Positions 7,128 through 26,449 of a DNA stretch of 64,000 nucleotides are shown piece after piece (the stretch's first letter is position 1; each line of letters begins with the position of its first letter). The notes below the pieces were generated by a model. That model ran no database searches. It was not told where the DNA came from and saw only the letters and a program-made list of their open reading frames with translations. The DNA is from Candidatus Doudnabacteria bacterium (GTDB lineage Bacteria; Patescibacteriota; Doudnabacteria; UBA920), in NCBI GenBank assembly GCA_963837465.1, contig CAWINB010000001.1, positions 437,646-501,645 of the forward strand, in the 5' to 3' direction. The position numbers and the translations under genes are program-made.

Positions 7128-7724
7128 ATGCAAATTGTAATCCTAATTTCCAACGCCGGAACCGGCACTAATTTGCAGGCTATCATTAACGGCATTGGGG
7201 CCGGCCAAATAAAAGCCCGAATCGCGGCGGTGATTTGCGACAAAGCCGGCGCGCCGGGACTGGAGCGCGCTGAAAAAAGTAATTTACCCGCAAAAATTTG
7301 CCCGAAAAAAGAGGAATTGCTGCCGCTGCTAAAAAAACTTAATCCCGATTACATTTGCCTGGCCGGCTGGAAACAAATAATTCTGGACGAAGTTATTTTG
7401 GCTTTTCCAAACAAAATTTTAAATCTGCATCCGGGCTTAATTCCCGACAGAGCCGATGGTAGCGTAAAAAATCCCGACGGCACAGAGGGGCTTTGGAACA
7501 AAGGCATGTTGACCACAAAAGCTATTCAAAATTTCTTGGACCAAAAGGCCACGTTCGCCGGCTCATCCATCCATTTTTTATCTCTGGAATTTGATTTTGG
7601 CCCGGTGCTGGGCAGGTGTTTTGAAAAAATTGCGGCTGGCGATACGGTTGATGATTTGTATAAAAGACTGAAGGAAAAAGAAAACCGGTTGTACGTGGAA
7701 GTTTTAACAAAGCTTAACGGGTGA
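7128..7724 (+). CDS. purN: Phosphoribosylglycinamide formyltransferase PurN (with an insertion of about 18 aa)
   Basis: N-terminal MQIVILISNAGTGTNLQAII and NLHPGLIP motifs; TGA stop. Confidence 0.8.
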   Translation: MQIVILISNAGTGTNLQAIINGIGAGQIKARIAAVICDKAGAPGLERAEKSNLPAKICPKKEELLPLLKKLNPDYICLAGWKQIILDEVILAFPNKILNLHPGLIPDRADGSVKNPDGTEGLWNKGMLTTKAIQNFLDQKATFAGSSIHFLSLEFDFGPVLGRCFEKIAAGDTVDDLYKRLKEKENRLYVEVLTKLNG

Positions 7725-7757
7725 TAATTTTGTCAATTTCTTAATTTTTGTTCAATT

Positions 7758-9164
7758 ATGGCAAATATTCTTGTCATCGGCTCGGGAGGGCGCGAACACG
7801 CTTTGGCGTGGAAGCTTAAGCAGTCGCCCAAGGTCGGCAAAATTTTTGCGGCGCCGGGGAACGGCGGCAGTTCTTTGCTGGCGGAAAATGTGGAGATTAA
7901 AGCTACAGACGTTTTGGCTTTGGCCGACTGGGCGGAAAACAATAAAATTGATTTTACGGTGGTCGGGCCGGATGACGCCCTGGCTTTGGGTATTGTGGAT
8001 GAATTCCAAAAAAGAGGCCTTAAAATTTGGGGGCCGGGCAAAGCCGCGGCTAAAATTGAATCCAGTAAGGCTTTTGCCAAAAAGCTGATGGAAGAAAATG
8101 ATATTCCGACGGCGGAGTTTAAGGTTTTTAATGATTACGGTCAAGCATTGTTATACGTTCAAAGCCATTTCCAAGGTAGCGTGCCCATCGCGTATCAAAG
8201 TATGGGACAAGCTTATGGGCGTCCTAGTTCGCCCATAAATGGGCACGCTACAAGACCCGTTGTCATCAAAGCCTCGGGCCTGGCCTTGGGCAAAGGCGTT
8301 GCCGTGTGCGAAACCTTGGACGAGGCCAAAAACTTTTTGCAAGACGTTATGGTCAATAAAATTTTCGGCGACTCCGGAAGTGAAGTCGTCATAGAAGAAT
8401 TTTTACAGGGCCGGGAATTTTCCGTCCACGCTTTTTGCGACGGCAAAAACTTTAAGCTTTTTCCGTCGGCGCAGGATCATAAAACCATTTACGACAATGA
8501 CCAAGGCCCCAACACCGGCGGTATGGGCGCCATTGCTCCGGTGCCGTGGGTTACAAATGACCTGATGAAACAAGTATCGTCGGAGATTGTAAAACCCGCG
8601 CTGGAAGGTTTAAAAAATCTGGGCTCGCCGTTTGTGGGGTTATTATATCCGGGATTGATGGCAATAACAGCCGATAAATCGGCTAACTACGCGGCTTTTG
8701 TAGTCAGCCCATTTATGGGCTCAATCAAAATTATAGAATTCAACGCCCGTTTCGGCGACCCCGAAACCCAAAGCTATATGCGCCTGCTGAAAACAGATCT
8801 TTACGATATTTTAGAAGCCTGCGTCAACGGCAGTTTGGACAAAATCAATATTGAGTGGTCAAAAAAGTCGGCCTGCTGCATAGTTTTAGCCAGCGGCGGC
8901 TACCCCGGCGAATACAAAAAAGGTTTGCCCATTACGGGAATTGCGGACGCGGAAAAAATGGATGATATCATAATTTTCCACGCCGGAACGGCAATCAAAG
9001 ATGGTCAATTAGTTACCAACGGTGGCCGCGTTTTAGGAGTCACGGCAATTGCAGATGATTTACAGACAGCGCTCAACAAAGCCTACACAGCCATCAAGCT
9101 AATCAATTTTAAAGGAATGCGATACAGAAGCGATATCGGGCAAAAAACTTTAACCTATGTTTGA
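7758..9164 (+). CDS. purD: Phosphoribosylamine-glycine ligase PurD carrying two in-frame palindromic insertions
   Basis: MANILVIGSGGREHALAWKL, VIKASGLALGKGV, GPNTGGMGA, EFNARFGDPETQ; TGA stop overlapping the next ATG (ATGTTTGA). Confidence 0.9.
   Translation: MANILVIGSGGREHALAWKLKQSPKVGKIFAAPGNGGSSLLAENVEIKATDVLALADWAENNKIDFTVVGPDDALALGIVDEFQKRGLKIWGPGKAAAKIESSKAFAKKLMEENDIPTAEFKVFNDYGQALLYVQSHFQGSVPIAYQSMGQAYGRPSSPINGHATRPVVIKASGLALGKGVAVCETLDEAKNFLQDVMVNKIFGDSGSEVVIEEFLQGREFSVHAFCDGKNFKLFPSAQDHKTIYDNDQGPNTGGMGAIAPVPWVTNDLMKQVSSEIVKPALEGLKNLGSPFVGLLYPGLMAITADKSANYAAFVVSPFMGSIKIIEFNARFGDPETQSYMRLLKTDLYDILEACVNGSLDKINIEWSKKSACCIVLASGGYPGEYKKGLPITGIADAEKMDDIIIFHAGTAIKDGQLVTNGGRVLGVTAIADDLQTALNKAYTAIKLINFKGMRYRSDIGQKTLTYV
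8176..8251. repeat. Divergent family A-like palindromic element in-frame inside purD (arms gtagcgtgcccat / atgggcacgctac; inner gcccataaatgggc)
   Basis: 13-nt perfect inverted arms; encodes about 25 extra residues relative to E. coli PurD just before the VIKADG motif. Confidence 0.7.
8667..8722. repeat. Family A palindromic element in-frame inside purD, in right-half then left-half order (aacagccgataaatcggctaactac … gtagtcagcccatttatgggct); encodes AITADKSANYAAFVVSPFMGS
   Basis: About 20-aa insertion between the conserved GLM and KVIEFN(C/A)RFGDPETQ motifs. Confidence 0.8.
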
Positions 9165-15260: not shown

Positions 15261-16448
15261 CTATTTCCCTATTTCCCCGCTAAAATAGTAAGCTGCCAAC
15301 GCCGTGGTTATGGGCACTGCCAAAATCAGCGCGGTACTGCCCACCAGCGCCCGGGCAATTTCCTCGGCCAAAGATTCGCTGTTTATTATTGCCCAAAGCT
15401 GTCCCTGGCCTGTGGTCAAAATAACCAGCAAAAACAAAGGCAGGGAGGCCCCGACATAAGTAAGCACCAAACTGTTGATTAAAGAAGCAATATGCTCTCG
15501 CCCGATTGAACTGCCTTTTTTATAGAGCTGACTGAAAGTTAAGTTATTATCGGCATAAAAAATTTCTTCCACTGCCGCGGATTGCGCCGTGGTAATGTCG
15601 TTTAGGACTCCGAGCGCGCCAATGATAACGCCGCCCAAAAGCAGGCCCTGCAAATTAATGTTGCCCAAAAAACCCTGCTGTAAATAAAAAGCCTCCTGCG
15701 AGCCGTTGCCGATTAACTTCGCGCCGATGATGACAAAATAAGCCGCGGCCTCGGCCAAAGCCAGAGTTACCAAAGTCCCGATAACGGCAATTAGCGTGCG
15801 CTGTTTAAAGCCGTGTGCCAAAAACATTGAGATTAGCGCGATGCTTCCGGCGCCGACCACAGTAACAACGGTGGGGTTTTTTCCGGCAATAATATTGGGC
15901 GCGATAAAAAAAATTAAAATTCCGATGCTCACGCAAAGGCCGATTACGGAAGTCAGTCCCCTTAAACGGCCAATTGCCACGGCCAAAAGCAAAAACGCCG
16001 CGGCCAGCCATTCAAGCGCGGGCAGGCGGTAACGGTCCACCAGCACATAACTGACCGCGTCCGTGCCGCTTCCAAAAATGTCCGCCGATTCCGGTTGCTC
16101 AATTTTTCCCACCACAATCACATCGCCGACCTTAATCTGCTGCAGGCGCAGGCTGGTTAGCTGCTCATCCTGCTGGACTTGCTCCTGCTGCCCTTTTTGG
16201 GAACCGCTTAACAAAGTAACGTTTAAATCTGCCGTAATTCTGGAATAACGCTTGCCCTGTTCCGCAATCTGCCCAGAAACACTGTCCACCCTGGCCTTAT
16301 CCAGTTCGCCGTAAGACAACTGGCTACTATCCGCTGCCTGCACCGCAAACTGCTGGTTATTAACCTTGGGTTCTTTTTCAACCTTGTACCAACCAAAAGC
16401 CAAAATAATTGCGCAAACAACAACAAAGCCGACTAAATATTTCTTCAT
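15261..16448 (-). CDS. YibE/F-family integral membrane protein
   Basis: Multi-pass membrane protein with an N-terminal extracytoplasmic Gln-rich domain; family assignment from memory of YibE/F topology. Confidence 0.5.
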   Translation of the reverse strand: MKKYLVGFVVVCAIILAFGWYKVEKEPKVNNQQFAVQAADSSQLSYGELDKARVDSVSGQIAEQGKRYSRITADLNVTLLSGSQKGQQEQVQQDEQLTSLRLQQIKVGDVIVVGKIEQPESADIFGSGTDAVSYVLVDRYRLPALEWLAAAFLLLAVAIGRLRGLTSVIGLCVSIGILIFFIAPNIIAGKNPTVVTVVGAGSIALISMFLAHGFKQRTLIAVIGTLVTLALAEAAAYFVIIGAKLIGNGSQEAFYLQQGFLGNINLQGLLLGGVIIGALGVLNDITTAQSAAVEEIFYADNNLTFSQLYKKGSSIGREHIASLINSLVLTYVGASLPLFLLVILTTGQGQLWAIINSESLAEEIARALVGSTALILAVPITTALAAYYFSGEIGK

Positions 16449-16551: not shown

Positions 16552-17085
16552 TTAAGCCTTATTAATTTGCATTAGATATTCCGGTTCGGTTTCATCAGGC
16601 AACCGCACGGTTTTTAAATATCTAAAACCGGCTTTTTCGTAAGCTTTTATGGCTCCAATATTTTTAGGCTCTGGTCCGACTACGCAACTAACAATTTCTG
16701 GTTTGGTGAATACAATGTCTGCTAAAAAGTTTTTTATAATCTCCGCGCCCAACCCCTTATGGATGTAGTTAATGTCGCCGATAAACAGATCAAGCCCAGC
16801 GGCTTCTTCGTTTAATTCCAGATGCCTGCTATATTCAGGATAATCTTTGATTAGATAAGTTTGAATGTAGCCAATTGGCATGTCGTAATAGAAAATAATA
16901 TAACTTTGAGTGGATTCATTTTCTTTAAGAATTGAATTATATTTTTCAGCAACTGCTTGAAAATCAGATAGATCCTTATTTTTATCGTACCATTGTTTAA
17001 CGTGAGGCTGATTGTGTCAAAGGTGCAATAACATCAAGTCTTTTTCTTGTATAGGCCTAAAACCAAATTGGCTATTTACGATCAT
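16552..17085 (-). pseudogene. AAC(6')-Ib-like GNAT N-acetyltransferase with an in-frame TGA at 17017-17019 in the Trp position of the YEWLN motif
   Basis: Both halves align with AAC(6')-Ib (LMLLHL*HNQPHVKQWYD vs LAMLYEWLNRSHIVEWWG; PIGYIQTY; KGLGAEII; AIKAYEKAGF); the ORF track only calls the 109-aa part after the stop. Confidence 0.6.
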
Positions 17086-17147: not shown

Positions 17148-17984
17148 CTACCTGGCGCCTACCACAAACCTCGTCGCTACGTATGCCAAAAAGGTAATGG
17201 TGGTGATAAAAAAGCTTACCGGGTATGGGAGATAGAAAGAAAGAAATAAGCTGATCCACGTAGCGGCCAAAGCTAGGGCTACGGATATGGCTATGCCCTG
17301 GGCGGGACGCCGGGCCAGTTGCTGGGCTACGGCCGCTGGGGTAACCATCAGCGCGAATATCAAAAGAACGCCGACTACCTGCACCGCTATGGAAGTAGCG
17401 ACGGCGACCAGCAGCATAAAGGCCGCGCCTATCCAAAAAATTGATATGCCCCTGGCCTCGGCGACATCTTCATCCAAAGATGTAAACAGCAAAGGACGAT
17501 ACATAACGGCAACCGCGATCATAAGCAGCAGCCCGGCTATGGCTGTCACCACTACATCGCCGCGGCTTATGCCCAGTATTTCCCCAAACAACAGCGAGTA
17601 AGCTTCGGTGGCATAACCGGAATAGAGGCTTATAAACAGCACGCCTATGCCGAGCATAAAAGCCAGCACGGTGCCGATTTGAACGTCTCGCGTGGCCGCT
17701 TTACGCCCAAGTATGGCGATGGCAAAACCGCCGCCGCAGGTAAAAACCAAAAGTCCCACAAGCGGATTTAAACCAAACAGCACGGCGCCGGCCGCTCCGG
17801 CAAACCCGATATGGGACAGCGCGTGCGCCGCGAATGACGACCGCCGCAGGACTATAAAATAGCCGATGACTCCGGCCACAACAGCGACAACCGTTCCCGC
17901 TTCAAAAGCGTGGCGCATAAAATCATACTGCCACATTGAAGCCAGGTCGCCGATGATATTAAAACTAAAATTAATGCTGTTCAT
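17148..17984 (-). CDS. znuB: Metal (Zn/Mn) ABC transporter permease, ABC-3 (ZnuB/MntB-like)
   Basis: ABC-3 family hydrophobic profile; TAG stop; start overlaps the znuC stop. Confidence 0.75.
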   Translation of the reverse strand: MNSINFSFNIIGDLASMWQYDFMRHAFEAGTVVAVVAGVIGYFIVLRRSSFAAHALSHIGFAGAAGAVLFGLNPLVGLLVFTCGGGFAIAILGRKAATRDVQIGTVLAFMLGIGVLFISLYSGYATEAYSLLFGEILGISRGDVVVTAIAGLLLMIAVAVMYRPLLFTSLDEDVAEARGISIFWIGAAFMLLVAVATSIAVQVVGVLLIFALMVTPAAVAQQLARRPAQGIAISVALALAATWISLFLSFYLPYPVSFFITTITFLAYVATRFVVGAR

Positions 17985-18765
17985 GGTGGTGGGGCGTTTC
18001 ATCTATGCCGATTATGGCAATTCTTCCGCGGGAATCTTTTAATACTTCCACCGGGATGTCGTAAAGTTTTGTCAGCGCCTCCGAAGTTAAAACCTCGGAC
18101 GGCTTTCCGTTGGTTAAGCGGCCATTGGCCACATAAATGACCCGGTCCAGCACCGACAGGAGCGGATTAATGTTATGGGCTATCAACAAAACCGTAACGC
18201 CCCTTAAGCGCACAACATCATTAATCAGCTGGACGAAATCAGACTCCCTGCGGATATCCAAATTGGCCAAAGGCTCGTCCAAAAGCAGAAGTTCCGGCTC
18301 CCCGACCAAGCTTTCGGCCAAAAATACTCTCTGCAGCTCCCCGCCTGACAGCGCGCCCAAACGGCGGTGCGCCAGATTTTCCGCGCCCACAATTTTAAGC
18401 ACATCCATGGCTTTATCGGTGGCATCTTTCCCCATGCTTATTCCAAAACGATTTCCATTAAGTCCCAACCGTACAATTTCCAGGGCTTCTATTCCTGTTT
18501 CAGCGTCTATGGGATGCCTTTGGGGAATATAGCCGATCCTGTGGTCGCCGCGGCTGGGACTCTTGCCAAAAACAGACAAAGATCCCGTTAGCGGCCGGGT
18601 CAAGCCCAGCAAAAGCCGGAACAGAGTTGTCTTTCCGGCTCCGTTGGGGCCAAGCACCGCCACAAATTCGCCCTTTTCTATGGAGAAACGGGCGTCCTGC
18701 CAAACCATTTTATCCTTATAGCCGGCCGACAGATTATTGGCCGCGATGACAATGTCTTTGTTCAT
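17971..18765 (-). CDS. znuC: Metal ABC transporter ATP-binding protein (ZnuC-like)
   Basis: Walker A GPNGAGKTT, signature LSGGELQR, Walker B LLLLDEP. Confidence 0.8.
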   Translation of the reverse strand: MNKDIVIAANNLSAGYKDKMVWQDARFSIEKGEFVAVLGPNGAGKTTLFRLLLGLTRPLTGSLSVFGKSPSRGDHRIGYIPQRHPIDAETGIEALEIVRLGLNGNRFGISMGKDATDKAMDVLKIVGAENLAHRRLGALSGGELQRVFLAESLVGEPELLLLDEPLANLDIRRESDFVQLINDVVRLRGVTVLLIAHNINPLLSVLDRVIYVANGRLTNGKPSEVLTSEALTKLYDIPVEVLKDSRGRIAIIGIDETPHHHEQH

Positions 18766-18775
18766 TTATTATTGC

Positions 18776-19723
18776 TTATTGTCCCAGCGCTTGGGCGTTA
18801 AGCGCGTTTTGGAGGCTTATCAGTTCGGCGTTCATCCATTCCTGGAAACTTGCGTCCGGCGGCTGGATGGTTTCGGTTACGCCGATGACCGGAATCTGCT
18901 CATTTGCCGCCAGAGCTTTCATGCTCTGAGTCAGGGGCGTCACTGTTTGTTCATTATAGACCAAAACCCTTATCTTGCCACTCTTTAACTGGTTCTCAAA
19001 TTCCACCACGCTGGCCGCGGGCGGATCGTTACCCTCGGCCACGGCATCTATAAAAGCGGGCGGGGAAACAAGGTCAAGCCCCGCGGCATCTGCCAGATAG
19101 GCGAAAATAGATTCGGTGGAGGCAACTTCCACGCCGCTGTATTGTTGTTTAATGGCGGCAACGCGGCCTTGGTATCCAGCCAAGCTGGATTGCAGCGTCT
19201 TGTATCGCGCCTGGTAATAGGCGGTGTCCGCCGGATCAATGGAAATAAGATTCTGTTCCATTTGCGCTATAACTGTATTAACGTACGTGGGGCTGTACCA
19301 CATATGCGGATTGTCCCCTTCTTTTTTACCAAGCAAGTCTGCCACGTTCAGAACTTTCTGGTTTGGATTGTTGGAAGCGCTAAGCAGTTTGTCCATCCAG
19401 CTATCGTATCCAGCGCCGTTTTCTATAACATAATCGGCGCTGGAAACGGCGCGGGCGTCGCCGGCGTTGCTTTCGTATTCATGCGGATCGGCATTGGGAT
19501 CGGAAACAATGCTTAAAACCCGCGCGTGAGAACCTCCGATTTGGGAGACGAGACTTCCCCAAAAATTCTCCGCGGCCACCACTTGCAGGACTTTTCCGGA
19601 CGCAGTATCTGCGGGTGCGGGAGCGCTTGCCGTCTGGTTCTGATTGCCGCGCGACAGCAATAAACTCACTCCCACGATCACGACTACAATCGCTAAAACT
19701 GCTATCCAAATTCTTTTATTCAT
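18776..19723 (-). CDS. znuA: Metal ABC transporter substrate-binding protein (ZnuA/TroA family)
   Basis: Signal/anchor N-terminus, cluster-9 SBP-like sequence. Confidence 0.7.
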   Translation of the reverse strand: MNKRIWIAVLAIVVVIVGVSLLLSRGNQNQTASAPAPADTASGKVLQVVAAENFWGSLVSQIGGSHARVLSIVSDPNADPHEYESNAGDARAVSSADYVIENGAGYDSWMDKLLSASNNPNQKVLNVADLLGKKEGDNPHMWYSPTYVNTVIAQMEQNLISIDPADTAYYQARYKTLQSSLAGYQGRVAAIKQQYSGVEVASTESIFAYLADAAGLDLVSPPAFIDAVAEGNDPPAASVVEFENQLKSGKIRVLVYNEQTVTPLTQSMKALAANEQIPVIGVTETIQPPDASFQEWMNAELISLQNALNAQALGQ

Positions 19724-19784
19724 AAAATTCTTAAATTAATTACTTTGGAACCCGTTTTAAAAATAATTTCTTTATCAAATCATA

Positions 19785-19810
19785 AACGCAAATAATTTGC
19801 GTGTCAAATA
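19785..19810. promoter_or_regulatory. Putative Fur-family (Zur) box 1, AACGCAAATAATTTGCGTGTCAAATA, about 60 nt upstream of znuA
   Basis: 7-1-7 palindrome ACGCAAAT-A-ATTTGCGT; two related copies at 21733 and 22371. Confidence 0.55.
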
Positions 19811-19811
19811 A

Positions 19812-21071
19812 CTAATCATCCGGCGTAGAGGTGGCATTGCTTGTGCCCGTAGCGTTATTAGTTGTGGAACTCGCTGCGTCATCAGAAGTTGGTTCAGTTG
19901 TGGACGCTGGTTGGGAAGATAAATCCCGCGGCAAAACATCAACAGCACTGCTGGCCGAAGAACTGGCATCGCTGGCATTTAAAGAGCCCGGCATAGATGA
20001 GGCCGCTGGTGGGCTACCCAAGTTGGCAGAAGGCGCGGCTTGGGACACCACGGAATTAACTGTGGCGCACTTACCGGCTGCTTCCCGCAGCATATTATTG
20101 GCCGAAAACACACAGACCGGTTGGCCGGTAACGGTGTCATAAATTGTAATACCCTCGGGGTCGCCTGGCGAGCCGACTTCCAGGCGCTTGGTCCGGATAA
20201 AATCCGCAGCCAGGGTTTCGACCTTTATGATGTCCTGCTGTATGGAAATTCCCAATTGATTTAAGGCCTGCAAAACCCAGGATACATCCAATAAACTGTT
20301 AATTTTTTGGTCCAGTCCCTGAATGCCGGCCAAAGCTACCCCGGCCGGATCAATGGTGGAAATGGAACTGCTGCTGTCGCCCAGGCCAAAATCGGCGTAA
20401 AAGTCTTCGGCCACCGGCCCCATATGCACTACGTTGGAATTTTCTGTTTTATAGTTCCAGGTATAAACCGGCAGACTGTCGATTTTTGTTAAAATATCGG
20501 CCGGGCTGACTGTGGCGAAATTTTCCTTTAACTCACGGCCGGAGGCATTAGTCCAGTCGTAGCCGTCAAAATTGGCAGTTGAAGCCGGCGATTCTATGGT
20601 CGCGACATTTAAATCGTTGTCCGTAATGCCGGAAGTAAAATTAGCCGGGCCGTCCACTTCCATAGGCGCTCCCGAGTTTACATTCAGGCTGGTTTGGGCG
20701 GTAACATCTCCTCCGGAAAGCTCCGTAAAGCCAGCTATGTTGCCGGGGAGATTATTGTTATAGCTTATGGGAACAGGACCGCCTATTTCGGCGGCCGCGT
20801 CCTGGCCGGGGTCGCCTTTGTCGCCTTGTTGCCCCTTAAGCAGACCCTGTGCCACCAGCGCGTTGACTTCATCAATAACCAGACTGGTTATATAAGCACC
20901 GGTAGGATCCTCTATGACGGAAGTCGCGGGTTTTTTATTTTGCCTGGGAGCAGGAGTATTTTTTTGGGAAATTGGTTTTGGCCTTTGATTTTTGTTTTGG
21001 GCGACAACCGGTGTTAAGGGCAAAAGCAAAGTCAGCGCGGACAAGCTTACGCCCAAAAATATTCTTTTCAT
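19812..21071 (-). CDS. Secreted collagen-like / Peptidase_S74 (intramolecular chaperone, tail-fibre-type) domain protein
   Basis: Signal peptide, GDKGDPGQ collagen-like triplets, S74-like C-terminal region, Ser/Thr-rich tail. Confidence 0.5.
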   Translation of the reverse strand: MKRIFLGVSLSALTLLLPLTPVVAQNKNQRPKPISQKNTPAPRQNKKPATSVIEDPTGAYITSLVIDEVNALVAQGLLKGQQGDKGDPGQDAAAEIGGPVPISYNNNLPGNIAGFTELSGGDVTAQTSLNVNSGAPMEVDGPANFTSGITDNDLNVATIESPASTANFDGYDWTNASGRELKENFATVSPADILTKIDSLPVYTWNYKTENSNVVHMGPVAEDFYADFGLGDSSSSISTIDPAGVALAGIQGLDQKINSLLDVSWVLQALNQLGISIQQDIIKVETLAADFIRTKRLEVGSPGDPEGITIYDTVTGQPVCVFSANNMLREAAGKCATVNSVVSQAAPSANLGSPPAASSMPGSLNASDASSSASSAVDVLPRDLSSQPASTTEPTSDDAASSTTNNATGTSNATSTPDD

Positions 21072-21094
21072 AGTAAGAAAATTAATTATAAAAG

Positions 21095-21715
21095 TTATTT
21101 TTTAAATGACAAGATTCTAATTTCGGAAAACCAGCCCATCTTTTTAAGGCCAACCGGCTTAAGTCCTGCCTGTGCGGCTAAAGCCTCCACTTCTTTTTTG
21201 GTGTAATATTTTTCAAAATGATACGGTTCCGGGCAGCGGTCCCAGTTATAAAGCCTTTGTTGCCAGCGGTATTTGGGCATAATGTCCGCCACATAAAAAA
21301 TGCCGCCGACAGAAAGCACCCGCGCCGCCTGCCGGAAAACTTCCACGGGCTTTTTGTAATGGTGCAGCGACATGCACGACAAAGCCACTGCAAACCTGCC
21401 GTCCGGATATGGCAGGTGTTCGGCCAAACCGGCGGAAAAAATTCCCCAGGGGTGTTTTCTGGATGCCTGCTCAACGACCGCATCGGACATGTCAATCCCG
21501 TAAAAATCCAAAGCCGGCGAGTGGCCGTAAAACAACTCCAGCATATCGCCCTGGCCGCAGGAAATATCTATAATCGAGCCTTGTTTGGGCAATTCAAACA
21601 AAGACAAAAGTCTTTGCCGCTTACGGCGGGGAAAATATTCCCGGCAGGCCCTGACCGCGGTTAAAAGCTTGCTGATAATTTCATGTTCGGTATTTTGAAA
21701 GGCGATTTTTTCCAT
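21095..21715 (-). CDS. Class I SAM-dependent methyltransferase
   Basis: DISCGQG motif I; LPYPDGRFAVALSCMSLHH. Confidence 0.7.
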   Translation of the reverse strand: MEKIAFQNTEHEIISKLLTAVRACREYFPRRKRQRLLSLFELPKQGSIIDISCGQGDMLELFYGHSPALDFYGIDMSDAVVEQASRKHPWGIFSAGLAEHLPYPDGRFAVALSCMSLHHYKKPVEVFRQAARVLSVGGIFYVADIMPKYRWQQRLYNWDRCPEPYHFEKYYTKKEVEALAAQAGLKPVGLKKMGWFSEIRILSFKK

Positions 21716-21732
21716 TGGCGACCGATTAATGT

Positions 21733-21760
21733 CTTAATAATAATGCAACTTATTTGCGTT
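21733..21760. promoter_or_regulatory. Putative Zur box 2, AATGCAACTTATTTGCGTTTGTCAAATC, just upstream of the methyltransferase start
   Basis: Shares ATTTGCGT-TGTCAAAT with box 1. Confidence 0.45.
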
Positions 21761-21816
21761 TGTCAAATCCGCGAACTTCGCGGTTCATTTTAAAATAGGG
21801 ACGAAATTCGTCCCCG

Positions 21817-22359
21817 TTAGTGCCCGAACAGCATAAAAAATGCGTGCCAGGCGCCGTCCTCTGTACCCTTTAAAACGGGTATTATCCTCCTTTTAAACCA
21901 GCTTTTCCGATGCAGTCTGCCCACTTCATCCCATTGGCTTTCACGTCCATAGGACGTTTTAAGAGGCGTAAACACGACACCGCGTTCGTCAACGGCCAAG
22001 ACAAGGTTTGTTACCGGAAGTTCTTTGTAGTAATCCTTCCACTTCCAGTTAAAGCTAACTTCCTCATCTTTCAGCAGAACGTTCCGCCACCCTCCCTCGG
22101 CTTGCTTGAGCATGCGTTCAGCAGGAACCGAAAAGTGACGTTGGTAGAGGAAAATGATGTCGTAACCCTGCTCGGCGCAGAGAGCATCCCAGTCGTACTC
22201 TTCCTCTTTTTTTGGACGTCTTTTTAATTTGTCCGACGATGATTGATCGTCAAACTTACTCCATCCGCCGCGGTCAACAGGCGGCTGATAAACCGTCTGT
22301 GGTTGGGCCAAAAGCCCGGGCACAGACACCGACAACAACAACCTGTACAGTAACGTCAT
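21817..22359 (-). CDS. Secreted hypothetical protein (signal peptide)
   Basis: N-terminal signal sequence; start 12 nt downstream of Zur box 3; two hairpins downstream of the stop (ccgcgaacttcgcgg, gggacgaaattcgtccc). Confidence 0.5.
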   Translation of the reverse strand: MTLLYRLLLSVSVPGLLAQPQTVYQPPVDRGGWSKFDDQSSSDKLKRRPKKEEEYDWDALCAEQGYDIIFLYQRHFSVPAERMLKQAEGGWRNVLLKDEEVSFNWKWKDYYKELPVTNLVLAVDERGVVFTPLKTSYGRESQWDEVGRLHRKSWFKRRIIPVLKGTEDGAWHAFFMLFGH

Positions 22360-22370
22360 AGCAATATCTT

Positions 22371-22396
22371 AATGCAAATGATTTGCATTTATCAAG
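22371..22396. promoter_or_regulatory. Putative Zur box 3, AATGCAAATGATTTGCATTTATCAAG (perfect 9-1-9 palindrome), in the divergent promoter region
   Basis: aatgcaaat g atttgcatt is a perfect inverted repeat. Confidence 0.55.
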
Positions 22397-22427
22397 AGGC
22401 TGGAGTATAGTCAAATCAGGAGGATTA

Positions 22428-22598
22428 ATGAAGCTCAAAGATGTTTTTCTTTTGCCGATTCTGCTGGGAACAATTTTAGGGCAACCCGGAAGTCATAATT
22501 GCGGGGGGACGTGCGGCATATGCAATCCCCCAAAGAGGGAAATAAAATCCGAAGGACAAGAAGATCAGCAAAACCAAGACTATGAGGGCGGCGGCTAA
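22428..22598 (+). CDS. Small secreted Cys-rich peptide, 56 aa (…HNCGGTCGICNPP…, acidic tail)
   Basis: Strong SD AGGAGG 5-10 nt before the ATG; hydrophobic N-terminus; lies directly downstream of Zur box 3 and upstream of zur. Confidence 0.45.
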   Translation: MKLKDVFLLPILLGTILGQPGSHNCGGTCGICNPPKREIKSEGQEDQQNQDYEGGG

Positions 22599-22653
22599 GC
22601 CACGGCCGCCCTATCTTCACCCACTTGGTAATTTATGGTAGTATTTAAAAGCT

Positions 22654-23082
22654 ATGGAAAAAAACTGCAAACAGCATACATCCGAATCAAAACAACAGTT
22701 AAAAACCGGCGGCCTTAAAATAACGTCCGCCCGCCTGGGGCTTTTGGATATTCTCAAGCACGCCAAAAAGCCTCTGTCCATAAAAGACATCGCCAAAAAA
22801 ATGGCCCGGAGCAATGTGGATTTGGTCACGCTTTACAGGAATGTGGATTCGTTAAAAAATTTAGGCGCTATTAAACAAATAAATTTAAAAGACAAGCAGT
22901 CCTACTACGAGCTTGCGGGCGGCATCCACCATCACCACCTTGTCTGCACCAATTGCGGAAAAATGGCCGATGTGGAACTGCCGGAAACATCTTTAAACAA
23001 AACCGCGCTAAAAAAACACGGCTTCGCCAAAATTACGGACCACAGTTTGGAGTTTTTTGGAATTTGTTCTAAATGCAATTAA
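22654..23082 (+). CDS. zur: Fur-family transcriptional regulator (probably Zur)
   Basis: HHHH … CTNCGK … ICSKC (two CxxC pairs), Fur-family length. Confidence 0.75.
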   Translation: MEKNCKQHTSESKQQLKTGGLKITSARLGLLDILKHAKKPLSIKDIAKKMARSNVDLVTLYRNVDSLKNLGAIKQINLKDKQSYYELAGGIHHHHLVCTNCGKMADVELPETSLNKTALKKHGFAKITDHSLEFFGICSKCN

Positions 23083-23235
23083 GAAGCTGTTTTAAAAACA
23101 AATGGACAGTTTTTTGGAAACGGATAACACTGATAATTACGCATTCTATCCGTGTTATCTGTTTTAAATCCGTGTCATCTGTGTTTATGTTCTGTACAAA
23201 CCTGTCCCAAAATAAGTTCACAATTATTTTATATG

Positions 23236-23685
23236 GACAAGCTAAAAAAATTTGACTTTGCGGTTTTAAATTTTGTTAAGCGGCACGATATTTTATTCGC
23301 GCGGATGGCAATTTTTATTGTCTATTTTTGGTTTGGGGCCTTAAAACTCTTTGGGGTAAGCCCGGCGGACCCGCTGGTGGAAAACTTGCTAAAACACACT
23401 TTGCCGTTCATCAGCTTCCAGCATTTTATAATTTTGTTCGCCCTGTTTGAAATGCTCATTGGCATTCTGTTTTTAATCCCCGGCCTGGAACGCCTGGCCG
23501 CCGCTTTGCTGGTCATCCACCTTATTACAACTTTTTTGCCGCTCATACTTTTGCCCTCCGAAACCTGGCAGGCATTTTTAGTGCCGACTCTTGAAGGGCA
23601 GTATATTATTAAAAACGTTTTAATTATCGCCCTGGCTTTGGTTATAACCGCCAGGATTGATTTTATGGCCGCTAAAAAATCCTGA
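23236..23685 (+). CDS. Small integral membrane protein (4 predicted helices)
   Basis: Hydrophobic profile; ATG at 23236 within the ORF-track ORF 23152..23685. Confidence 0.45.
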   Translation, partial: DKLKKFDFAVLNFVKRHDILFARMAIFIVYFWFGALKLFGVSPADPLVENLLKHTLPFISFQHFIILFALFEMLIGILFLIPGLERLAAALLVIHLITTFLPLILLPSETWQAFLVPTLEGQYIIKNVLIIALALVITARIDFMAAKKS

Positions 23686-23688
23686 CAA

Positions 23689-24582
23689 ATGCAAAGTACT
23701 TTAAATCAAAAAGTGTCCCTTGCTAATATCCTGGGCAAAGCCCTGGGGATTTTATGGCTGATTGACGGGCTGCTGCAGCTGCAGCCAAAAATGTTCGGCG
23801 CGGATTTCATTAACAATGTGCTGGCGCCAAACCTAAGCGGCCAACCCGGGTTTATGCGCGCGTTAATTGATTTTGGCATACGCGTATTTAGTTTCAACAT
23901 CGCGACTGCCAACTGGATTGCGGCGTTGCTACAAATAGCCATTGGGGTTTTATTATTGTTTCCCATTGCGGGCAAAAAATTTAAAGCGGGTTTGTATTTA
24001 TCCATTGTCTGGGGATTAATAGTCTGGATATTTGGCGAGGGCCTGGGCAATCTTCTCACGGGTTCCGCCAGCTTTTACACCGGAGCGCCGGGTTCGGCTT
24101 TGGTTTACGCGCTCATCGCGACATTCCTTTTGATGCCGGAAAAGATTGACCGCAAATTTTTTGCCAAAATCGCGGCGGCAATATTATTTATGGGCGCGGC
24201 TTTACAGCTCCAGCTGATGTTTTGGAATTCTGATGGAACACAAACGATGTTTCAACTCTCCGCTTCCGATCCCGTACACGCGATAAACTCTTTGCCCGCT
24301 ATTATTTCCAATTCCCTATCCGCTCATCCAATTGAGTTTAACTGGCTCTTGATTATTCTGCCTCTGTTGTTAGCAATCGCGCTATGGCTCAAACCCAATA
24401 AAACAACAGCCGCCACAACCATCATCTTCCTGTTTTTTGTCTGGTGGCTGGGCCAGGATTTCGGCGGCCTCTCAACAATTTGGCTTGGAACCGCCACCGA
24501 CCCAAACACCGCCCCGCTTATAATGCTGCTTGTGCTACCTTTGTTCCTGCGGAATGATGACACTCCCCGTAAACAAGACTAA
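23689..24582 (+). CDS. Integral membrane protein of unknown function
   Basis: Multiple hydrophobic helices. Confidence 0.45.
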   Translation: MQSTLNQKVSLANILGKALGILWLIDGLLQLQPKMFGADFINNVLAPNLSGQPGFMRALIDFGIRVFSFNIATANWIAALLQIAIGVLLLFPIAGKKFKAGLYLSIVWGLIVWIFGEGLGNLLTGSASFYTGAPGSALVYALIATFLLMPEKIDRKFFAKIAAAILFMGAALQLQLMFWNSDGTQTMFQLSASDPVHAINSLPAIISNSLSAHPIEFNWLLIILPLLLAIALWLKPNKTTAATTIIFLFFVWWLGQDFGGLSTIWLGTATDPNTAPLIMLLVLPLFLRNDDTPRKQD

Positions 24583-24976: not shown

Positions 24977-25420
24977 ATGTCAAAAAAACGATTTGCCGAA
25001 GCCGCTTTTATGGTCGGTAGTTTATTGGCTGGGGAAGCCGCTGGCCAAAATAAGCAAGCCGAAACTAAAGCACCCCAAAAAACCGAACAAACAAAAAAGG
25101 GAGAAACAGCAGTAGACCCCGAAATTAAAGCAGCCCTTGAGGAGCAGGCAATAAGATTAAAAAATCCGGAAAATGCAAAAGACCCGGGACTGGTTAAATT
25201 TATTGAGCAATCGGCTTATAAGAAAATTGCGAAAATCGTTGTTGAAAGATTGGGCAAATATAACAAACCTGGACTTTTAACAGACCAGCTACAAGCAGAC
25301 CTAAAAGTTGAAGCAAAAAAATTAGGCTTGACTTATGATATGCTCGGCAAATGTATTGAAGCAGCCGATAGCGATAAAGCTTTTTTATACTCTCTTGCTA
25401 AATTAATTCCGATTATATAA
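24977..25420 (+). CDS. Hypothetical protein whose last about 11 codons are supplied by the IS630 terminal repeat
   Basis: The ORF runs into the IS TIR (…YSLAKLIPII*). Confidence 0.4.
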   Translation: MSKKRFAEAAFMVGSLLAGEAAGQNKQAETKAPQKTEQTKKGETAVDPEIKAALEEQAIRLKNPENAKDPGLVKFIEQSAYKKIAKIVVERLGKYNKPGLLTDQLQADLKVEAKKLGLTYDMLGKCIEAADSDKAFLYSLAKLIPII

Positions 25421-25988
25421 TTTCAAAATTAAGAGTTAATAGTGTTTTAAGCTCCGCTTTGTACTGAGATATGTTTTTAAAGAAATCATGTATGGCGATT
25501 GTAAACTCCTGAAAGGTTTTGTAGTACTTGTTGGCTTTAACTTTCTTTTTCATGAATTTCCAGAGGCGTTCAATCAAGTTTAAGTTGGGAGAATACGGCG
25601 GCAGGAACAACAGCTCAATGCCCAGATGTTTCGCTTCCTCGTTGGCCTGCTTGCTATGGTTGTACTTGGCGTTATCCAGGAAAATGTATATGGTTTTAGC
25701 TTTAGGATAATCTTTTCTGACTTCCCCTAAGAATATTGTCATCATTTGCCCGTCACAGTTATCTTCGGTCGTCAAAATAGTGGGTTTAAAAGCTACGGGG
25801 TTGATAGCGCCAATAACAGTTAATCTTTCCCGGCCGCTGTTTGAAGGAACCTTTTTAGTTTCACTTTTACCTTTAAGTTGCCAGCAGTAGCTATTGTCAG
25901 CATTATGGACCAGGTGAGCGGGGTCTAAAAACAGCACGATGCCTTTGTCTTTATCAGCTTTCTTTATGGTTTTAAAGATTAATTTCAC
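25413..25988 (-). CDS. IS630-family transposase, DDE catalytic part (orfB), in a different frame from orfA
   Basis: DDE-domain-like sequence (…LFLDNAKYNHS…LPPYSPNLNLIE…). Confidence 0.7.
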   Translation of the reverse strand: MKLIFKTIKKADKDKGIVLFLDPAHLVHNADNSYCWQLKGKSETKKVPSNSGRERLTVIGAINPVAFKPTILTTEDNCDGQMMTIFLGEVRKDYPKAKTIYIFLDNAKYNHSKQANEEAKHLGIELLFLPPYSPNLNLIERLWKFMKKKVKANKYYKTFQEFTIAIHDFFKNISQYKAELKTLLTLNFEII

Positions 25989-26029
25989 AAAATCTTCCTG
26001 GGTCTCTCTGTCAGGCGCGCCGCTGGGAA

Positions 26030-26449
26030 CTATATGGGTTTTTTTGTAAGATAAATTGAGTTTTTTTTACAGCAGCGAAACAGCCAGCTTTGTTCCATCT
26101 CAATTGAATATTTTTCCTTAATCCAGGCCTGCATTTCAGCTAAAGTCGTAATAGTGTTGTCTTTTACATCTTGTTTGATTTGGTCTACATAATCATTAAT
26201 TTTTGACTTCCGTTTATCTTTAAATTGTAGCTTGCGTAGTCCCTGTAGTTTCTCGGATTGATAGATTTTTATCCAGTCTGTAATCGTATCCACGCAGACA
26301 TTAAACGCTTCCGCGATCTCCTGATGGTTTTGCCCCTGGTTCAGTAACTTTATGGCCTCCAGACGGCGCAGAACTCTGACATTTTTTTCCTGTTCCTGAA
26401 GTTGTTTAATCTTTTTAAGCTCACTGACGGACAGTTTTATTTGGTACAT
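26030..26449 (-). CDS. IS630-family transposase, N-terminal HTH part (orfA)
   Basis: HTH-rich N-terminus typical of IS630 transposases; a T8/A8 run (26046-26054) near the frame junction. Confidence 0.7.
   Translation of the reverse strand: MYQIKLSVSELKKIKQLQEQEKNVRVLRRLEAIKLLNQGQNHQEIAEAFNVCVDTITDWIKIYQSEKLQGLRKLQFKDKRKSKINDYVDQIKQDVKDNTITTLAEMQAWIKEKYSIEMEQSWLFRCCKKNSIYLTKKPI

Follow-up and report, generated by a model that had tools for sequence, protein, structure and literature searches.

A 64,000-nucleotide (nt) stretch of a Candidatus Doudnabacteria genome (contig CAWINB010000001.1, forward-strand positions 437,646 to 501,645; called the window here and numbered from its first letter) contains three copies of a palindromic box, which lie among genes for a ZnuA-type ABC transporter and a Fur-family regulator. 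These boxes are very probably the operators of the adjacent regulator. The preliminary description of this DNA had proposed as much, with the regulator's own gene among the targets, and the proposal is supported by the conservation of the box in relatives and its rarity elsewhere. The operator set and the small metal-uptake regulon that it would define appear to be real and well conserved in this bacterium of the Candidate Phyla Radiation (CPR, Patescibacteria); the half-site is one that is already known, and the assignment to zinc is probable. Transcriptional regulation in CPR/Patescibacteria is almost unstudied, and no paper on their Zur or Fur operators turned up in a literature search. The locus represents a clean candidate pair of operator and repressor that could be studied in vitro with no need to culture the organism; the operator is conserved throughout the radiation and also outside it.

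Each box is a 19-bp inverted repeat with a 9-1-9 arrangement and the general form AATGCAA(A/C)T-n-A(T/G)TTGCATT, and none is assigned to a strand. Box 1 (AACGCAAATAATTTGCGTG, 19785-19803) was read directly in the sequence, and its core, ACGCAAAT-A-ATTTGCGT, is a perfect 8-1-8 palindrome (19786-19802). Box 2 (AATGCAACTTATTTGCGTT, 21742-21760) has the core ATGCAACT-T-ATTTGCGT, while Box 3 (AATGCAAATGATTTGCATT, 22371-22389) is a perfect 9-1-9 palindrome whose core, ATGCAAAT-G-ATTTGCAT, is likewise perfect. All three of the sequences originally quoted are present in the window and were recovered by reading it. The coordinates first given for the outer two sites (19785-19810 and 22371-22396) are right, but the middle site is located at 21742-21769 rather than 21733-21760, a displacement of 9 nt. 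In addition, the unit had been taken to be a 26-nt motif, and this does not hold: what repeats is the 19-bp palindrome together with the -35 hexamer of the promoter that encloses it. The GTCAAAT tail of the longer motif corresponds to that hexamer, and it therefore falls outside the operator.

A plain consensus search is a poor guide to how rare the boxes are. When up to 3 mismatches are allowed, it gives 11 matches against 8.9 expected, which is chance level and uninformative, and for this reason an independently trained matrix was used instead. (With up to 2 mismatches, there are 4 matches: the three boxes and a site at 9050 inside the purD coding region.) The 19-bp weight matrix was trained on 13 sites that adjoin Fur-family genes in other genomes, with no sequence from the window. 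When the 64-kb window is scanned with this matrix, the three boxes rank first to third, with scores of 25.7 (Box 3), 24.5 (Box 2), and 19.1 (Box 1), and the site in fourth place scores 9.9. In 200 first-order Markov shuffles of the window, the best score has a mean of 14.9 (standard deviation 2.35), and sites scoring at least 19.1 occur at a mean of 0.055 per shuffled window. These scores argue that the presence of three boxes within 2.6 kb is not due to chance. Occurrence at random density had been named as a finding that would count against the motif, and within the window only the three boxes score high.

The positions of the boxes relative to promoter sequences are just as distinctive. A promoter scan combined with a strand-wise alignment indicates that every box occupies the spacer of a σ70-like promoter on the minus strand. 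Upstream of the transporter operon (19779-19807, minus strand), a -35 TTGACA (19802-19807) and a -10 TATGAT (19779-19784) are separated by a 17-nt spacer that is filled by Box 1. The promoter-like site of the methyltransferase gene (21737-21766, minus strand) has TTGACA and TATTAT around an 18-nt spacer filled by Box 2. These two sites, each with 11 of 12 matches to consensus, rank with the strongest promoter-like sites in the 10.5 kb that the scan covered. The site that precedes a gene for a 180-aa protein (22366-22395, minus strand; 9/12 matches) consists of TTGATA, an 18-nt spacer filled by Box 3, and TAAGAT. On the opposite strand, Box 3 contains the -35 (TTTGCA/TTGCAT) of a further promoter-like site (22382-22411, plus strand; 9/12 matches), which has the -10 TATAGT and is followed by an AGGAGG at 22418-22423 ahead of a 56-aa open reading frame (ORF) and the regulator gene. 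Because Box 3 overlaps both the minus-strand spacer and the plus-strand -35, a single palindrome could silence both of these divergent promoters. The ATG of the 180-aa gene lies only 6 nt past its -10 (22357-22371, minus strand), and its mRNA is therefore probably leaderless. The same layout (TTGACA-AATGCAAATGATTTGCAT-TAATAT-6 nt-ATG, about 1205-1220) is seen at an orthologous locus from another genome (L192), implying that a leaderless mRNA is conserved between the window and its only close ortholog.

Other genomes retain both the box and its linkage. In three loci whose regulators are 68-76% identical to that of the window (L081, L082, and L084), the regulator gene and an operon point away from each other, with the box in the DNA between them; the operon encodes either an S74-domain protein, ZnuA, an ATPase, one or more permeases, and a YibE/F protein, or simply ZnuA, an ATPase, and a permease. 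Two of these loci, L081 and L082, carry two adjacent boxes. (Paired boxes with centres 28 bp apart are present at L081 1301-1347, L082 9937-9983, L122 2334-2380, and L173 6608-6654; one box of the pair is in the spacer of the transporter promoter, while the second reaches into the regulator's own promoter, where it overlaps the -35 and the spacer.) A scan of metagenomes with a 25-nt pattern, composed of the box plus the -35, returned 105 stretches. A Fur-family gene directly adjoins the site in about 65 of these, with 25-76%, and often only 25-40%, identity to the regulator of the window; 7 further stretches have an adjoining transporter gene, and a few are plainly accidental, such as one in a conserved coding sequence read by eye as a PilT-like ATPase. 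When the 63 distinct CPR sites are considered together, the positions left free in the search pattern resolve to the palindrome AATGCAAC-T-n-A-GTTGCATT, after which comes a TAnnnT -10, and there is no information outside the -35, the box, and the -10. Selection acts only on the promoter and the operator.

An unbiased set of loci gives a similar picture. This set comprises 80 loci that were chosen by protein similarity alone from among the matches listed in a protein-pattern scan, with regulators at most 41% identical to that of the window. In 11 of these 80 listed matches, a box precedes the Fur-family gene at a distance of no more than 200 nt; the 11 include Saccharibacteria, Peribacteria, Levyibacteriota, and other Patescibacteria, as well as metagenome-assembled genomes of Ignavibacteria and Methylomirabilales. 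High-scoring sites of this set that had not been used for training and that lie beside identifiable genes are next to ZnuA (L010, L013, and L028), ZIP (L017, L019, L022, and L030), and nicotianamine-synthase-like (L031) genes. The check that had been suggested at the outset, whether the box is present upstream of transporter genes in relatives, has thus come out in its favour: the box is kept upstream of transporter and regulator genes alike. The box can be used to search the genomes of uncultured organisms for genes of metal starvation.

The half-site had at first been considered distinct, but this is not the case. A Zur site of Desulfovibrio (ZUR_D, ATGCAACNNNGTTGCAT) was predicted upstream of znuABC-zur in two genomes (Rodionov et al. 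2004, Genome Biol 5:R90; PMC545781) and reads ATGCAAC-N3-GTTGCAT. The consensus of the 63 CPR sites is identical to this site, which is itself a computational prediction from two genomes, and over its 17 bp the boxes of the window match 12, 12, and 10 of the 14 specified bases. In both cases, the box is linked to a znuABC cluster that has its own Fur-family gene; the likeness is one of operator and gene linkage. The differences are that the host here belongs to the CPR/Patescibacteria, that two of the three window boxes have A..T at the inner positions where the Desulfovibrio site has C..G, and that a methyltransferase, an S74-domain protein, and orphan secreted proteins are additional members of the regulon. 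The Zur box predicted in 2004 on the basis of two genomes alone now has many independent instances.

Next in similarity is the Zur box of S. coelicolor, a 7-1-7 element of the form tGaNNatSatNNtCa (PMC5472717). Box 3 (TGCAAATGATTTGCA) shares this architecture and differs from the S. coelicolor box only at the symmetric third position. Actinobacterial Zur proteins also repress znuABC from boxes that overlap the promoter, sometimes two per promoter, as is predicted here. The Fur, PerR, and Zur boxes of Bacillus subtilis (TGATAATNATTATCA, TTATAATNATTATAA, and TCGTAATNATTACGA, respectively) have the n-1-n dyad in common with the window boxes and, for two of the three, an AAT-n-ATT centre, and they too are bound by a dimeric, metal-loaded repressor that occludes the promoter, which is the arrangement predicted for this locus; however, their specificity bases are ATA, TAT, or CGT, whereas those here are GCA / TGC. 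Compared over the 7-1-7 form, the classical Fur box (TGATAAT-n-ATTATCA / GATAATGATNATCATTATC, the consensus quoted in PMC545781) and Box 3 disagree at 4 of 14 specified bases, namely the positions that discriminate among Fur, PerR, and Zur. By sequence, then, the operator is closest to the Desulfovibrio ZUR_D site, with the S. coelicolor Zur box second, and it does not belong with the classical Fur, PerR, or Bacillus Zur boxes.

The regulator itself is a 142-aa protein encoded at 22654-23082 on the plus strand, and it is probably a Zur. It was originally described as a Fur-family ORF with an HHHH motif and two CxxC pairs, and that description is accurate. The protein matches the Pfam FUR family (PF01475) over residues 20-134 with 87.6 bits (E = 9e-25), far above the gathering score of 23.1, and in PDB comparisons the solved Fur, PerR, and Zur structures all match it about equally well, Fur slightly better than the others. 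The HHHH motif (residues 92-95) and the pairs at C98/C101 and C138/C141, which would form the structural Cys4 site, are invariant across 36 homologs and are kept even in the distant clade of box-linked regulators. The HHHH(H)LVC..C motif is also seen in M. tuberculosis Zur. Residues E86, D106, and H130 are conserved in the family alignment. The closest relatives, at 50-76% identity, come from metagenomes; one of them (72%) is named Candidatus Doudnabacteria by NCBI, in line with an origin of the window in the CPR/Patescibacteria. An N-terminal C-x-x-H (C5 and H8; 22666-22677) is conserved at 90% or more in the clade of the window regulator and is missing in the distant box-linked clade; its residues could serve as additional ligands for metal. 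The regulator gene is followed by a stem-loop, probably a terminator (23117-23165, plus strand), for which RNA folding gives an 18-bp stem and a z-score of -2.77 for the 150-nt spacer. Its sequence is GAAACGGAUAACAC...GUGUUAUCUGUUUU; the ATAACAC/GTGTTAT arms recall NikR half-sites, but the spacing (21 nt) differs.

From the sites, their promoter context, their rarity and conservation, and their linkage to Fur-family and metal-uptake genes, we infer binding by the regulator, repression, and the identity of the metal. By analogy, the mechanism would be the textbook one for the Fur family, in which a metal-loaded dimer sits on a dyad that overlaps the promoter. The promoters that contain boxes would drive the ZnuA-type ABC operon, the methyltransferase gene and probably with it the S74 gene, and the leaderless 180-aa gene, while Box 3 would also cover the -35 of the plus-strand promoter for the small peptide and the regulator. 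A metal-loaded repressor dimer bound to the palindrome would block RNA polymerase; when the metal is scarce, the repressor would leave the DNA, so that the regulator is expressed together with the uptake system and the accessory genes. The metal is most probably zinc, and the protein would then be a functional Zur with an operator of the Desulfovibrio ZUR_D class. This complete explanation, from operator to metal, is favoured here with some reserve.

If the operator-repressor assignment is granted, the case for zinc is a reasonably good one, and it comes largely from the genes that the box accompanies elsewhere. The boxes precede zinc-uptake genes and overlap their promoters, as expected of Zur operators. 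In addition to ZnuABC, they are linked to ZIP (ZupT-like) transporters in Verrucomicrobia, in Saccharibacteria, and in a locus whose regulator is 72% identical to that of the window (L147); in L130, two boxes precede a match, at 251 bits, to the "all3515 family Zur-repressed PEP-CTERM protein". Among 31 distinct binding proteins from box-bearing loci, the third metal ligand is His in 27, as it is in Synechocystis ZnuA and AztC.

Several observations weigh against zinc or against calling the protein a Zur. In an NCBIfam search, the regulator is above no equivalog cut-off; its best matches, all far below, are Fur and PerR models, and no Zur model is among its matches, including that for the enterobacterial Zur. 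When solved proteins are compared with the profile of the regulator family, Fur proteins (86-93 bits) score slightly above Zur proteins (M. tuberculosis 77, S. coelicolor 69, and E. coli 42), with PerR at 82 and Nur at 64. In an alignment to the M. tuberculosis Zur structure (2o03), Lys74 and Ala88 occupy the positions of Asp62 and Cys76, and only the two His of the sensing site are kept. (The sensing site of that protein consists of D62, C76, H81, and H83.) The conserved ligand candidates of the regulator, E86, H93, H95, and D106, look instead like a Fur/PerR site. The binding protein of the window has His (DPHEYE), His (NPHMWY), and Glu (STESIF) as its ligands rather than the three His of a zinc-type protein, and the Glu, which aligns with the His of ZnuA/AztC and with a Glu of the Fe/Mn protein YfeA, recurs in the binding proteins of L082, L122, L178, and L182. 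Neither paralogs of zinc-independent ribosomal proteins nor COG0523 genes, the classic mark of a zinc regulon, were seen next to any box, an FTR1 iron-permease-family gene adjoins one box (L151), and the searchable literature holds no binding or expression data for the regulator or any member of its clade. With regard to the sensing site, cyanobacterial Zur proteins that have been validated are also without the canonical Asp/Cys site (PMC3323870), and the mismatch here consequently weakens the Zur label but does not exclude it. On balance, the Zur label of the preliminary description is still the most likely one because of the regulon content of relatives, even though the equivalog, the slightly closer Fur proteins, the absent sensor Asp/Cys, and the Glu ligand do not fit it.

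Several of these same observations could be explained if the operator and repressor are as proposed but the metal sensed is Mn(II) or Fe(II), giving Mur- or Fur-like control of a Mn/Fe-type ABC importer. Such an arrangement, which is a good deal less likely, would account for the His-His-Glu at the first three ligands of the binding protein, with its YfeA-like Glu, for the resemblance of E86/H93/H95/D106 to the regulatory site of Fur/PerR and the best scores of Fur structures, and for the FTR1-family gene in L151. However, the same box, with regulators 60-72% identical, is paired with three-His binding proteins (L084, L112, and L127) or with ZIP (L147), the His-type proteins predominate in the 31 examined, and the Asp expected as the fourth ligand of a Mn-type protein is not evident in the binding protein of the window. 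Furthermore, the box matches the Zur site predicted for Desulfovibrio, and separate FUR and PerR sites are predicted for the same genomes (PMC545781).

A more speculative and doubtful reading is that the box may mark a distinct, uncharacterised lineage of Fur-family sensors that extends through CPR/Patescibacteria, Verrucomicrobia, Ignavibacteria, Methylomirabilales, and Desulfovibrio. Regulators of this lineage would be without the Cys-containing Zur site and would instead have a Fur-like N/O site, together with the N-terminal CxxH in the clade of the window; they would sense zinc by other chemistry or would sense another metal. In Doudnabacteria-like episymbionts, they might couple metal starvation to a surface programme that comprises the S74 protein, the methyltransferase, orphan secreted proteins, and YibE/F. 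If true, this would provide a first functional handle on the YibE/F family as a component of metal uptake.

That the regulator senses peroxide in the manner of PerR, or nickel in the manner of Nur, is highly improbable. TGCAA / TTGCA, the outer half-sites of the box, are almost the same as those of the S. coelicolor Nur box, tTGCaa-N5-ttGCAA, and Box 3 matches that box at 10 of 12 specified positions (PMC2691836); PerR, as noted, scores well on the family profile. Yet Nur reads a 6-5-6 element with a free spacer and controls sodF and nik genes, whereas the inner positions of the box described here (8, 9, 11, and 12) are constrained as part of an n-1-n palindrome and the regulon is of the ZnuABC/ZIP kind. 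No genes for peroxide defence, superoxide dismutase, or nickel transport were identified beside any box in about 190 loci, and on the family profile Nur scores below the Fur proteins, PerR, and the actinobacterial Zurs.

Least likely of all is that the Fur-family gene is a bystander and the palindromes are bound by another, unlinked factor or act as RNA hairpins or terminators: Box 1 was flagged as terminator-like (a 7-bp stem and then a T-rich tail), but the base sequence, and not just the pairing, is conserved across regulators only 25-40% identical, a Fur-family gene adjoins more than 60% of the matches with no other regulator gene recurring, and the boxes are upstream of -10 elements and hence mostly untranscribed. 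The conserved sequence and this position speak against terminators. The palindromes are not accounted for by any known RNA element either, since the window gave no match in Rfam and tRNA scans.

Within the window, membership in the regulon is supported for the transporter operon, the methyltransferase, the 180-aa protein, and the regulator itself, which had all been proposed before and have promoters with boxes. The transporter operon, on the minus strand, encodes a ZnuA-family substrate-binding protein (18776-19723; Pfam ZnuA 1.4e-50 and PDB alignments), an ABC transporter ATPase (17971-18765; Pfam ABC_tran, with AztA and MntA among the best NCBIfam matches), and an ABC-3 family permease (17148-18002; Pfam ABC-3 2.2e-52, with AztB as the best NCBIfam match). 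The lineage-specific members are the part most worth following up. The Box 2 promoter serves a class I S-adenosylmethionine-dependent methyltransferase (21095-21715, minus strand; Pfam Methyltransf_23/11/25), a homolog of which, 37% identical, is found in L188 within the same layout of regulator, box, secreted protein, methyltransferase, box, DUF11-repeat protein, and ZIP. The 180-aa protein (21817-22359, minus strand), served by the Box 3 promoter, has a signal-like N-terminus and is a candidate secreted protein. It has no Pfam or NCBIfam match and is nearly an orphan, with five relatives among 1.8 billion representatives, and its AlphaFold model (pLDDT confidence score 42.6) is too poor for a fold search. 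The close ortholog in L192 is again divergent from an ortholog of the regulator, with the same box and the same leaderless spacing.

Two other proteins are likely members. The first is a secreted protein with a Peptidase_S74 (endosialidase chaperone) domain (19812-21071, minus strand; Pfam 1.5e-08), whose gene is downstream of the methyltransferase gene. S74-domain proteins are the first behind the box in the Doudnabacteria-like loci L081, L082 (8551-9849), L122 (1022-2245), L173 (4787-6094), and L174 (1885-3213), and there is no obvious reason for a tail-fibre-type domain in a metal-starvation operon. At the end of the methyltransferase gene, just ahead of the S74 gene, there is a near-consensus promoter-like site without a box (TTGTCA-16-TATAAT, 21085-21112, minus strand); because of this site, the S74 gene may also be expressed independently of the regulator. 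The second protein is a YibE/F-family membrane protein (15261-16448, minus strand; Pfam YibE_F 2.6e-59), which has no box of its own in the window and is a probable distal member. YibE/F genes end the ZnuABC operon or adjoin the box in L011, L082, L094, L107, L114, L142, L160, and L173, and this recurrence suggests a role in metal uptake; a literature search on the family gave only irrelevant matches.

For the remaining genes that had been counted in the regulon, the indications are weaker or negative. The Cys-rich peptide, a 56-aa ORF with a hydrophobic N-terminus and an H-x-C-x3-C-x2-C motif (22428-22598, plus strand), is called as a gene in a public assembly and has a good ribosome-binding site; it has no relatives in the loci examined and is a weak candidate. 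The two membrane-protein genes downstream of the regulator (23233-23685 and 23689-24582) are not supported as members, since a matrix scan finds no box nearby and the 18-bp stem-loop separates them from the regulator gene; all that speaks for them is L081, where the gene after the regulator is a fragmented homolog of the second.

In other loci, the box accompanies further genes that may be of interest, and the families that it links to metal uptake include YibE/F, S74-domain secreted proteins, the small methyltransferase, and two more groups. One consists of a short asparaginase-like protein with a Cys cluster in the form of a G-C-x-G-E-x-C-x-C insertion, which is first behind the box in L152 (289-864), L155 (462-971), and L107 (1854-2363) and may be a metal-related paralog. 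The other comprises two box-adjoining proteins that have no assigned family and share an H-N-C-D-C-G-C motif (L107 595-1308 and L184 115-921). In L031, a nicotianamine-synthase / CntL-like gene (7647-8467; Pfam NAS 1.9e-55) comes directly after the box, which hints at a metallophore under the same class of regulator.

Finally, two other features are seen in and near the cluster in the window. Between the permease and YibE/F genes lies an ORF for a GNAT acetyltransferase (16552-16881, minus strand), which matches only positions 55-144 of the 145 in the Pfam profile and looks truncated or degraded. Just past the cluster, an IS630-like transposase is present in two ORFs (HTH_23 and DDE_3; 25413-26449, minus strand).

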